DNA of 64,000 nt from Eledone cirrhosa (Eukaryota), in contig OZ024742.1 in assembly GCA_964016885.1 (NCBI GenBank), forward strand, positions 361,832,001 through 361,896,000, given 5' to 3'. The notes beneath the pieces are model-generated. The model was not told the DNA's origin, ran no database searches, and saw only the letters and a list, made by a program, of their open reading frames with translations. Positions 14,636-60,350 of this stretch are shown here, one piece after another. Positions within the stretch are counted from its first letter, which is position 1. Every line of letters starts with the position of its first letter. The position numbers and the translations under genes were made by a program.

Positions 14636-15324
14636 TGTCAGGTCACCACTTGGTGCTACTGGTAACATGTATCCCAGTACAACCTGTCACATGGTCGGGT
14701 CGTTGGCGACTAAACTGGCAACCCCACCAAGGTTTCTTAGTGAGGAGGGTGACTTTGGACATCCTGCAGGACTAAAAACAAAACCTGTCAAAGGGCAAAG
14801 GAGCTCTTAAGAGTCAATGGCCATCCAAAATCACTGGGAGAGATGACCCCTTAGCCTTTGTCAAGGCAGAATTCTAGGAGAAGGAAAACTCTGATATAAC
14901 ACCTGCAACCCTGATGGTATCCAATGATGTTGACTTGTTCTTCTTTTTGGTAAATATCATCTTGGTTAAGCGAGTGGGACTGGCTTTGTGCAGTGCCTTT
15001 GCTCACTATAAAAGCTTCACGGCACAGGCATTGCTTTATATCTGGAGATCTCTCTGCACTTGTCGTCACATGGTACCATGGGCCCAGCACTATGTGTGAA
15101 TGATTGTCACAAGTGTAGTGTTTGCACCAGAGTTTTCAAGTCGCTGGCTGGACTAAAAAGTCACACTCGTTCAGCGCATCGGTAGGGGTTCTCCTACATG
15201 GATATAAAGTGGTGGCCGTACTCGAAGACGAGTTGGCAGCCACCATGTATATATATATATGTATGTATATGTGTATGTATGTATATATATATGTATGTAT
15301 GTATGTATATGTATGTATATGTAT
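14636..15324 (+). mobile_element. Non-autonomous bipartite RTE derivative, family R1 copy 1, (ATGT)n tail
   Basis: Structured 5' part joined to an RTE-like C-terminal zinc finger ([26 protein letters not shown]), then a CTCG-nnnn-CGAG stem-loop and ATGT tail. Confidence 0.8.
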
Positions 15325-15800
15325 CACCGGGAGAGATGACCCCTTAGCCTTTGTCAAGGCAGAATTCTAGGAGAAGGAAAACTCTGATATAACACCTGCA
15401 ACCCTGATGGTATCCAATGATGTTGACTTGTTCTTCTTTTTGGTAAATATCATCTTGGTTAAGAGAGTGGGACTGGCTTTGTGCAGTGCCTTTGCTCACT
15501 ATAAAAGCTTCACGGCACAGGCATTGCTTTGTATCTGGAGATCTCTCTGCACTTGTCGTCACATGGTACCATGGGCCCAGCACTGTGTGTCAATCATTGT
15601 CACAGGTGTAGTGTTTGTACTAGAGTTTTCAAGTCGCTGGCTGGACTGAAAAGTCACACTCGTTCAGCGCATCGGTAGGGGTTCTCCTACATGGATATAA
15701 AGTAGTGGCCGTACTCGAAAACGAGTTGGCAGCCACCATGTATGTATGTATGTATGTATGTATGTATGTATGTATGTATGTATGTATGTATGTATGTATA
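15325..15800 (+). mobile_element. R1 copy 2, 5'-truncated
   Basis: Near-identical to 14832-15250. Follows the tail of copy 1 directly. Confidence 0.85.
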
Positions 15801-16850
15801 TGTATATTTGTATGTATATGTGTATGTATATATATGTATATATATATATTTATGTATGTATGTATATATATATATATATATGTATGTATGTATATATATA
15901 TATATATGTATATTTATGTATGTATGTATGTATATATATATGTATATATATGTATATGTATATATATATATGTATATATATATATATATGTGTGTGAGTA
16001 TATATATATATATATATATGTATATGTATATATATGTATATGTATATATATGTATATATATATATGTATATATATGTATATATATATATGTATATATATA
16101 TATATATATATATGTGTGTGAGTATATATATATATATATATATGTATATGTATATATATGTATATATATATATGTATATATATATGTGTGTATATGTGTA
16201 TATGTATATATATATGTATATATGTATATGTATATATATATATGTATATATATATATGTATGTATATGTATATATATGTGTATATATATATATATGTATA
16301 TATATATGTGTATATATATATATATGTGTATATATATATATGTATATATATATGTATATATATATATGTGTATATATATATATATATGTATGTGTATATA
16401 TGTATATATGTGTATATATATGTATATATATATATATATGTGTGTGAGTATATATATATATATATATGTGTATATATATATATGTATATGTATATATGTA
16501 TATATATATATGTATATATATATATATATGTGTGTATATATATATATATATATGTATATATATATATATATATATATATATATATATATATATATATATG
16601 TGTGTGTATATATATATATATGTATATATATATGTATATATGTGTGTATATATATATATATGTATATGGATATATATATATATGTATATATATATATATG
16701 TATATATGTATGTGTATATATGTATATATATATGTATATATATATATATATGTATATATATGTATATATGTATATGTATATATATGTATATATATATATG
16801 TATATATATATATATATATATGTATATATGTTACCATATATATATATGTA
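15800..16850. repeat. Compound (TA)n/(ATGT)n/(TG)n microsatellite expanded from the R1 tail
   Basis: Directly visible. Confidence 0.95.
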
Positions 16851-16855
16851 TATGT

Positions 16856-57566: not shown

Positions 57567-60149
57567 CCAGAGAGGAACCAGACTGGGGTCGAAAAATCAG
57601 CTAATGGTTCAAACCTTCCCATCACTTCGGAGCTGGAGACCTCCCATAACCGGAATACTCCTACTGTTGGCCCTCCATGCTCACCACCAAGAAATCCAAA
57701 GAAAAAGAGAGAAAAATGGTCAAGGGAAGATAATAAAGAAGTCCTTGAGGCTTTCTACACTGCCATGTACTACCCATCAAATACATCGAATACAGAGCAA
57801 ACATATATCAACTGGAAAAAGAAACATCCCGAAAACAGAGGCTATATTGACAGTAACAAACTAGCCAATATACGAAGAAATATTGTAAGAAAAAAGTTAC
57901 TAACTGATATAGAAATTGATCAGATCAAGCTAGTAGCACAAAGTCAGCGAAGGGAAAATGAAGCATGTGTCAGTGAAAACGAGGTAAACTGTAACACTTC
58001 GAATCCCAGAGTTGGGGCGGAATCACTGGCAACAGAACAAATTAAAGAAAGGAGCGAAAAAGTGGAGGGAGTGCATGCTCAGGATGAAACTCCAAATGAA
58101 AATAATGAGATCGTAAATGATAAAGAAATGAATGAGAATGAACTTGCCAACTTGAAGGATGAAATTATGATCGAATGGATGAAAATGAAAGAATCTGACA
58201 TGGGGGAACGAGACACCCTCCCTAAGATCCAGAACTCCAAACAGAACCAAAAGATAATACACAAGACTAACATAATTCTCAAAAACATTATCATCACAAA
58301 CAAAATAAACATTACTGACTTAAATCATCTCTATTATGCATCGGCTAAAGTCACCACTCACTTATGTGGAGTGAAGATGAAAAAACAAAGGAATTCCCAC
58401 AAGAAATCTACTTACCATTAAGTAAAATGCTCAATGAAACAAAACATGGATATAGAGTCTATGACAAAACCATTAATCACCTGTTCTACATGGATGACCT
58501 GAAACTATTTGCAAAAAATGATGAACAATTGCAAGGGCTATTATCCACTGTGAAGCAGTTCAGTGATGACATTAAAATGGAGTTTGGACTGGATAAATGC
58601 GCCAAAGCAACGTTCACCAGAGGAAAGCTGCTGAAGAGTTCAGACATTAATCTTGATCGGGGGAACGTGATAAGAGAGCTTGATCAAGAACAAACTTACA
58701 AATATCTAGGTGTTTGTGAAGGGGACGGAATCAAGCACTCGACAATGAGGGAAAGGATAAGGAAGGAATGTTACCGCAGAGTCAGAGCAATCTTAAGAAC
58801 GGAATTGAATGCAAGGAATAGGATCGATGCCATAAACACGCTTGCCATACCAGTAGTAACCTACAGTTACAATGTCATCAACTGGTCAAGCACAGAGATC
58901 CGTAGGCTCGATACAAAAATCCGAAAATTCTTAACCATGCACAGAATGCATCACCCTAAGGCAGACATAGATAGAATATATCTCCCTAGGAAAGAAGGAG
59001 GACGTGGGTTAATCCAGTTAGACATTGCGTTGAAAACTGCAACAATTGGATTATCTACATATCTAAGGGAATCACATGATTGGATGATCAAACTCGTTTT
59101 GAAACACGAAAGCACCAAAAGATCATATTCCATTACAAAAGATGCACAAAGATACAGTAATGGACTACAAATTTCAGAAGTCCCATTTACTGCTGAAATG
59201 GAAAACACAGAAAAAGCAAAGCAGGTAAAAGTAACTGCAAAGAAAGAACTGCTACAGAAACTGGCTAAGAAATGGCAAGAAAAGCCTCTGTATGGAAAAT
59301 ACCCAGAGCGAGCTAACAATCCTGATGTTGACAAAACTTTAACCCATCAGTGGTTGGCATCCTCTGGACTGAAATCGGAGACTGAAGGACTGATTATATC
59401 CGCACAAGATCAGTGTCTGCCAACAAAAAATTACCAAACCAACATAATAAAAAATGGGTGCAGCCCATTATGCCGTGTATGCAAAAAACAACCAGAGACC
59501 ATTGACCATATAATTTCAATGTGCATATCAATACATACATTGGATAATGTGTAAGCATTTTGACCTGCCCCATCAAAAGAATTGGTGGGAGCATCAACCA
59601 CCTCCCATACTTGAAAAAGATCACATCTCAATCTTGTGGAACTTTAGCATCCAAACAGACCGAAAAATAGATGCAAATAGACCTGATATAATATTGAAGG
59701 ACTTTCAAAGGAGGGTATGCCTGCTAATTGATATGTCTGTTCCAATAGACAAGAATGTATCTATAAAAACATTTGAAAAATTGAGCAAGTATAAGGACCT
59801 GGAGATAGAAATTGGAAAAATGTGGAAATTGAGAACTAAAACAATACCAGTGGTTGTAGGCGCTCTGGGAATGATACCTAAGGGGTCTAACGACTACTTA
59901 TCGCAAATCCCAGGAAACCCGCGTATAGGAGAAATACAAAAGATAGTACTAATGGGAACTGCCCATATACTAAGGAAGATCCTGTCAATATAAGTACATC
60001 ACAAGTCTAAACACTAAGGATGCATGTGTGAATATGTGTGTTCTTTCTTGAACATGGCGGACCTTGTTGTCTCTTGAGGTCACTGGTTGTGACTTGGTGA
60101 TAACTCGTATAAACATAAAGCAAGATAAATGCAAATAATAATAATAATA
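57567..60149 (+). mobile_element. Family B copy 2: 5'-truncated, ~1.1 kb internal deletion, intact 3' end
   Basis: Starts at the equivalent of 34068. At ~58412 it jumps from 34912 to ~36031. Small deletion at ~59524. Ends ...ILRKILSI*, 3' UTR, (TAA)n. Confidence 0.92.
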
Positions 60150-60151
60150 GT

Positions 60152-60350
60152 ACACTATTAATAATTATTAATGCACTCGTGCAATGCCTGTGCGTGACGA
60201 ATATTTTTAAAGTGAGGAAAGACTGTGCACTGAGTCAATCCCACTCTCTGAGCGACAGTAGCTATAACCCGAAAAGAAGAAAAGATCAACATCATCGGTA
60301 ACTACTGAGCCGCAGGTTTTATGTTTGGAGTTAACCCTGTTTCCTGAGAT
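60152..60350 (-). mobile_element. RTE/R2-type 5' UTR segment, 5'-truncated, flanked by (CATA)n
   Basis: Matches 46085-46285. Has no 3' tail of its own. Confidence 0.8.

Follow-up and report, generated by a model that had tools for sequence, protein, structure and literature searches.

We analyzed 64,000 nt of the Eledone cirrhosa genome (GenBank assembly GCA_964016885.1, contig OZ024742.1, positions 361,832,001 to 361,896,000 of the forward strand), hereafter called the window, which contains a long interspersed nuclear element (LINE), RTE-A, and copies of two bipartite derivative families, R1 and R2. In these elements, a short segment of the 5' untranslated region (5'UTR), the 5' arm, is complementary to a 3' arm directly before the terminal hairpin. 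The position of the arms, their complementarity, and their covariation across families are established here. Sequence comparison gives good support for a selected helix between the 5'UTR and the 3' end, which extends to more elements than the original prediction had recognized. We consider it fairly probable that the RTE arms pair in RNA and thereby form a single split signal for the element's reverse transcriptase (RT), and it is reasonable to infer that the helix is needed for mobilization.

Arms of the RTE-A LINE and of the derivatives R1, R2, and R3

The original prediction had proposed three pairs of arms, and all six segments were found at the positions in Table 1 and are complementary as proposed. 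The LINE arms form 11/11 Watson–Crick pairs and the R2 arms 12/12 pairs. The R1 arms of the window form 14/14 pairs with three G-U, whereas the commonest R1 form has two G-U (20 of 29 scored R1 copies). The motif before the 5' arm and the terminal hairpin, described as common to all three element types, are broadly present, but the plus-strand R2 copy carries a G-to-A difference in the motif, and its hairpin reads CGAA instead of CGAG.

Approximately 11 kb of other sequence separates the two LINE arms; therefore, we suspected that positions 60152–60350 represented a split R2 copy and not a LINE 5'UTR. Family copies and the match to a single intact copy (L188) ruled this out; the window pieces 60352–60134 and 52669–48700 match L188 at 97.7% and 95.8%, respectively. 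The window LINE ends belong together, as one intact-type element split by an insert of approximately 7.5 kb in its 5'UTR. Among 30 loci found by the start of the open reading frame (ORF), the segment corresponding to 60152–60350, with its motif, lies upstream of the ORF in 27, and the exact 5' arm is present in 23. In a second set of 30 loci, retrieved by the ORF end, 20 have the exact 3' arm downstream. Both arms are present, 3.6–4.8 kb apart, in 14 of 20 longer RTE-A stretches, 11 with the exact 3' arm (in the other six, the 3' end was not within the fetched stretch).

L188 has an open frame of 1056 codons, a single ORF with an APE endonuclease followed by RT and no ORF1. RVT_1 was matched with E 1e-31, and Exo_endo_phos_2 with E 1e-4, below its curated cut-off. 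The window ORF is broken by a deletion of approximately 30 nt and a stop. RTE-A copies end in short tandem repeats, (ATC)/(ATGT)n, with no poly(A). From this architecture and from UTR homology to named RTEs, we assigned the LINE to the RTE clade. Similarly, RTE-2_OV of Octopus vulgaris, compared by its published description only, has a single ORF with endonuclease, RT, and a C2H2 finger, and a microsatellite running from the ORF end fills most of its 3'UTR (PMC9115989).

R1, R2, and a third derivative detected in locus flanks, R3 (1,656 pattern matches vs 0 in the control), fit the class of bipartite non-autonomous RTE derivatives; judging from their sequences, they consist of 5' and 3' parts only and are multicopy and uniform (30 near-identical R1 loci examined; 4,348 matches to R2-type ends). 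No tRNA-, 5S-, or 7SL-type Rfam match was found in R1 or R3 loci, no dedicated tRNA scan having been made. R2 is 89–90% identical to RTE-A in the 5'UTR and 93–96% in the last 45 nt or so, and ten R2 stem pairs are inherited from RTE-A. The 3' homology between R2 and the LINE begins only 9 nt before the hairpin; therefore, the U-A pair of R2, taken in the original prediction as a compensatory change from G-C, falls at the deletion junction and is no clean compensatory substitution. No LINE with this U-A pair was found among the first 100 of the 4,348 matches. R1 had also been considered a derivative of the RTE-A family, but its identity to RTE-A over the 5' domain is only 69% (69–76% for R1 and R3, both with RTE-type ends), indicating that R1 arose from another RTE lineage and that its different 14-bp stem is independent evidence. 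The parent LINEs of R1 and R3 were not found, the best 30 matches for R1 all being R1 copies. The first R1 copy of the window retains approximately 110 nt of ORF, a 34-codon zinc-finger remnant of an RTE ORF end, within a 158-nt spacer between its arms; spacers in derivatives overall range from approximately 6 to 390 nt. A pattern for the terminal hairpin gave 41,804 matches vs 1,383 in the control, and the first 100 listed all belonged, by eye, to four stem-bearing classes.

Covariation across families and published elements

A formal R-scape test was impossible because MAFFT alignment of 18 derivative copies left the 3' arms unaligned across families. Pairing statistics were computed on family-majority 14-nt arms as in-register duplexes. 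This genome holds three older RTE LINE families, RTE-B, RTE-C, and RTE-D; in RTE-B and RTE-C, the 5' arm is rich in pyrimidines and the 3' arm in purines, and the two are complementary at the same place in the element. In-register pairs numbered 11 in RTE-A, 12 in R2, 14 in R1, 10 in R3 (positions 2–11), 10 in RTE-B (24 5' and 30 3' arms), and 13 in RTE-C (2 5' arms only, with a 3' set of 10 matches where 8 were expected). In metagenome contigs, a scan in which the motif was itself part of the search pattern gave 35 loci, about half with one end only. Among these, a whole LINE (L270) forms 13/14 pairs across 3289 nt with yet another arm sequence; two loci (L260, L272) have other arms and no 3' end. 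A protein-seeded scan of the metagenome contigs confirmed nothing.

Each of the helix positions 3–10 is occupied by two to four different pair types across families. The cognate duplexes, with a summed energy of −81.1 kcal/mol, ranked first among 5040 permutations (mean −34.4, sd 9.1) of seven arm classes, which include both weak ones described below; the cognate pairing of own-genome classes was likewise the best of 120 permutations. Three classes were omitted: R2 nearly duplicates RTE-A, RTE-C nearly duplicates RTE-B, and L262 has the same 5' arm as a metagenome short interspersed nuclear element (SINE). We read these ranks as support and not as p-values, given the kinship among the classes and the by-eye choice of some anchors. 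RTE-A, R1, R2, R3, and L270 were each beaten by only 0–2 of 2000 shuffles. No such excess over 2000 shuffles was seen for RTE-D, L262, the metagenome SINE, or early RTE-B and RTE-C consensuses, which were noisy with two ends each; the permutation used versions with more 3' ends. Non-Watson–Crick combinations in the first ten positions comprised 6 G-U vs 2 A-C, which modestly favors the sense RNA strand. Duplex strength by itself is not decisive, as one or two other sites per 4 kb or so pair equally well with the same 3' arm; what lies beyond chance is the fixed position together with covariation across families. The arms covary at this position across independent lineages, as the original prediction had expected.

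By eye, A takes the place of G in the G-U pair in approximately 16–19 of 100 listed RTE-B 3' ends vs 2–4 at neighboring G-C pairs; this excess was not evident in a 30-locus subset.

Published work was compared from the available passages and supplements of the papers cited. Bipartite RTE derivatives and RTE-mobilized SINEs are known (PMC5786205, PMC7245038, PMC4844689), and R1, R2, and R3 resemble them in combining an RTE 5'UTR domain, an RTE 3' end, and a microsatellite tail; by eye, their 5' domain shows homology to those of RTE-1_PSi, RTE-3_AMi, and WALLSI. Consensus stems in the supplement of Kojima 2018 (PMC5786205) were scored by eye and not computed, with HaSE1/3 and the cephalopod Ceph-SINEs left out. 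The stem was seen in turtle, alligator, Bov-B, elephant, and butterfly LINEs and in wallaby, platypus, bovine, python, crocodilian, coelacanth, and butterfly SINEs. RTE-1_PSi showed 9/9 pairs and RTE-3_AMi 10/10, with a U-A/A-U swap between them; BovB and BOVA2 each showed 10/10 with an A-U/G-C swap; WALLSI1 showed 9/10, WALLSI2 10/10, MonoRep87A/B 9/9 with an unrelated arm, and RTE-4_PPo 6. AviRTE SINEs had 5–7 bp in three of the four whose ends were shown (PMC4844689 supplement). The spacer is only 6–22 nt in some published SINEs, where the stem amounts to an ordinary local hairpin and may already have been drawn.

The bipartite layout is already known; the 5'–3' pairing is the new part. The passages available from the three bipartite-element papers say nothing of pairing between the 5' and 3' parts, and Kojima 2018 (PMC5786205) proposes binding of a transcriptional regulator and gives the cause of the deletions as unknown. 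The proposal that the pairing was undescribed agreed with our search of titles, abstract starts, and passages, which likewise yielded nothing on xrRNA in RTEs; subscription papers on Bov-B and related elements, and patents, lay outside it.

Predicted folding and proposed function of the helix

In L270, the cognate site was the best of 3611 windows, and the stem was present in the unconstrained 3.6-kb fold. The predictions for full-length RNA differ by copy, as the fold of L188 lacks the stem; both folds contain the same predicted 5'UTR hairpin upstream of the motif. In fragments with 70 nt of upstream sequence, pair probability was approximately 1.0 in 4/4 R2 copies, at least 0.9 in 5/6 R3 copies, and at least 0.91 in 6/7 R1 copies.

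In the mechanism that we propose, the 5' arm, after the conserved 5'UTR motif, would pair with the 3' arm directly before the terminal hairpin. The helix would form in vivo and stack on this hairpin, so that the conserved 5'UTR hairpin and the motif would come to lie beside the tail, where target-primed reverse transcription starts. The RT protein would favor RNAs that retain the 5'UTR, and 5'-truncated copies would be poor templates. An internal deletion sparing both arms would leave a local hairpin in place of the long-range helix, and the deleted form could spread; the closeness of the arms may also favor such deletions. The original prediction had the RNA clamped from end to end; the helix itself is well supported, but the 5' arm is internal, since copies reach 0.3–1.9 kb further upstream.

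Pairing of the Ty1 ends is another case of long-range 5'–3' RNA pairing. Kilobase-distant RNA segments also pair and form a replication signal in flavivirus circularization (PMC7999817) and in the discontinuous tombusvirus replication platform (PMC2648310). Unlike these viral systems, the element here is a non-LTR retrotransposon with target-primed reverse transcription, and we claim no sequence relationship. The terminal hairpin is of the structure type that LINE proteins are held to recognize (PMC6007223), and the 3' stem-loops recognized by stringent LINEs such as ZfL2 (PMC4176376) and the RTE/Au-SINE 3' hairpin (PMC6007223) likewise are terminal hairpins with compensatory changes just before the tail. 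In contrast to these, a second helix with the 5'UTR abuts the hairpin here, so that the signal would be discontinuous. If so, a LINE protein would read a discontinuous signal resembling the ones in RNA viruses, beyond the usual model of the 3' tail only. The retained 5'UTR piece of RTE-mobilized SINEs is stated to be unexplained (PMC5786205), and the stem would provide one concrete mechanism. The mechanism would also bear on RTE-based gene writers, in which templates with both UTRs are tuned by screening; the RTE-1_MD template RNA has both cognate UTRs, and the term 'base pair' is absent from the available text of that review (PMC13708176).

Several results weigh against this reading. The fold of full-length L188 omits the stem, and forcing it costs 16 of approximately 1348 kcal/mol; a site at +1328 in the L188 ORF pairs better with the 3' arm than the cognate site does. 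The window R1 copy had a pair probability of 0.00, and with 400 nt of upstream sequence only 2/7 R1 and 3/6 R3 copies kept at least 0.9. In old single copies (L161, L162, L178), 64–103 sites pair at least as well as the cognate one. RTE-D is a weak case, with a split 6+4-bp stem in shifted register. So is the bipartite SINE family of the metagenome, with five in-register pairs plus bulged ones and pair probabilities of 0.00–0.43; the single deleted copy L262 also pairs poorly. The strand test is modest, the arm classes are kin by descent, and the RTE-B and RTE-C anchors were partly picked after complementarity was visible. Plant Au-like SINEs are described as sharing only the RTE 3' end (PMC6007223), and tobacco RTEs switch 5'UTRs (10.1101/2022.11.04.512097); the stem may therefore not be clade-wide.

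The helix could be real and serve translation or RNA stability, as a closed loop or a flavivirus-like switch, with derivatives retaining it for stability. The 5' arm lies approximately 100 nt before the start codon, and the competing ORF site could tie pairing to ribosome passage. We consider this unlikely, as non-coding families with thousands to tens of thousands of copies retain the stem, and it always abuts the terminal hairpin; LINE proteins reportedly recognize structures of this kind (PMC6007223). It is less probable still that complementarity was made or kept at the DNA level, by quasi-palindrome correction or cDNA fold-back, or reflects chance and descent with no RNA function. R2 and RTE-A do have ten pairs in common by descent, and chance sites of similar energy exist; however, unrelated arms pair at one fixed position over approximately 3.3–3.9 kb in four LINE families, and G-U is tolerated on the sense strand. 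We rate this possibility as very low.

The original prediction regarded the bipartite derivatives as loop-out deletions. In the strict form of this idea, the helix matters to the LINE alone, RT skips the looped-out middle, and the arms are passengers. The R2 junction does abut the 3' arm, the R2 3' part beginning at its edge, and the shortest published SINE spacers would also fit. However, a skip across the helix base is expected to remove one arm, the spacers vary widely (158 nt in R1, with its ORF remnant; forms of approximately 30 and 370 nt in the metagenome SINE), and differences between derivatives and LINEs preserve pairing by eye (BOVA2/BovB, SINE2_Gav/RTE-11_AMi, WALLSI2), unless these come from unsampled parents. 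Loop-out with passenger arms is thus quite improbable. Because spacers vary so widely and both arms are nevertheless kept, selection for both arms is the best reading of the bipartite derivatives, ahead of loop-out alone. We give roughly even chances to the fuller combination, in which kilobase-range pairing forms a split RT-recognition element in animal RTEs, acts as a full-length check, and explains bipartite SINEs, and in which an xrRNA-like fold rather than a ribozyme may also set the RNA 5' end in this genome.

The 5' head and other features of the window

R1, R2, R3, RTE-B, and RTE-C have a common 5' head, found in 77 distinct copies, and it is where most intact copies begin. Its presence in the RTE-B and RTE-C LINEs suggests that it derives from the 5' end of a LINE. 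It was absent from the young RTE-A copies fetched. The head scored 25.9 bits (E 0.036) and 28.5 bits against Rfam RF01415 (flavivirus SLIV xrRNA), not reaching the gathering threshold of 54.5; in R1 and in four loci searched, no described Rfam family reached its own threshold. In an alignment of 21 head copies, a three-way junction with a loop-to-downstream pseudoknot fitted with 94% of 420 cells paired vs 27–43% when slid; covariation was limited to two pairs of helix 2. Ribozymes set the RNA 5' end in other RTEs (PMC8501958). By eye, the head has no P2 partner for an HDV-like ribozyme, and copies start approximately 25 nt before the would-be cut site of a twister; the head may nevertheless be a ribozyme. 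According to the predicted fold, a block of Xrn1 at the xrRNA-like head could set the 5' end of the element RNA.

The same head also occurs at window 46600–46662 (minus strand). Young RTE-A copies (L182–L184, L004, L009, L012, L015, L017) have up to approximately 1.9 kb of common 5' sequence, microsatellites and a SINE-like piece, in place of the ancestral head, possibly through a 5'UTR switch or 5' transduction. The RTE-D 5'UTR domain (L200–L219) is, by eye, very close to bird and nematode AviRTE.

Table 1. Positions of the RTE-A LINE, R1, R2, and their parts in the window
Feature	Position	Strand	Remarks
R1, full-length copy	14637..15247	+	arms 15029-15042, 15201-15214
Shared 5' head, predicted three-way junction and pseudoknot, xrRNA-like	14637..14700	+	in R1 copy
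Second R1 unit, tandem, 5'-truncated	15324..15740	+	arms 15522-15535, 15694-15707
Third R1 copy	16853..17426	+	arms 17208-17221, 17380-17393
R2 copy, head 17441-17580 inverted	17441..18050	+	arms 17964-17975, 18005-18016
R2, full-length copy	46030..46662	-	arms 46120-46109, 46079-46068
Terminal hairpin, then (ATGT)n tail	48741..48763	-	from sequence; also predicted by folding
LINE 3' arm, 11 nt	48764..48774	-	
RTE-A 3'UTR, microsatellite-rich	48775..49069	-	family trait
RTE-A ORF: endonuclease, RT, C-terminal C2H2-like fingers	49070..52585	-	domain matches
Nested insert in (TAT)n run of 5'UTR	52670..60133	+	pieces of two other LINE families with RT, on the strand opposite to RTE-A
RTE-A 5'UTR piece, 5'-truncated copy	60134..60352	-	97.7% to intact copy L188
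LINE 5' arm, 11 nt	60176..60186	-	approximately 100 nt upstream of first in-frame ATG (intact copy)
Conserved motif directly before 5' arm	60187..60193	-	homologous motif in 35 metagenome loci
Conserved 5'UTR hairpin, predicted, ends approximate	60209..60249	-	homologous place in L188 and L270 folds

The first R1 copy belongs to a recurrent arrangement, as R1 is often trailed by a second unit truncated at the identical point (18/30 loci; window 15248–15740; L061–L090), which suggests a dimeric R1 subfamily. The inverted head of the plus-strand R2 copy is arranged as in twin priming. The terminal hairpin itself (window 48741–48763, 15215–15237; L091–L120) covaries, by eye, among RTE-A, R1, and R3. 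An R3 subvariant (L104, L105, L109, L118) differs in its 3' arm but preserves pairing, in two helices of 8+5 bp.

The insert in the LINE 5'UTR contains pieces that match window 29217–33274 and 34070–37493 at 98%, with RVT_1 in those ORFs. Within the insert and window 28140–37526 lie pieces of two LINE families that encode RT and end in (AAT)n; they are nested in AAT/TAT runs, among them the run in the RTE 5'UTR, and are probably Dong/R4-like. ORF fragments at window 130–909, 2592–3952, and 62003–63491 resemble what we take to be GIY-YIG (Penelope-like) elements and include an inverted pair, 62003–62179/62991–63167.

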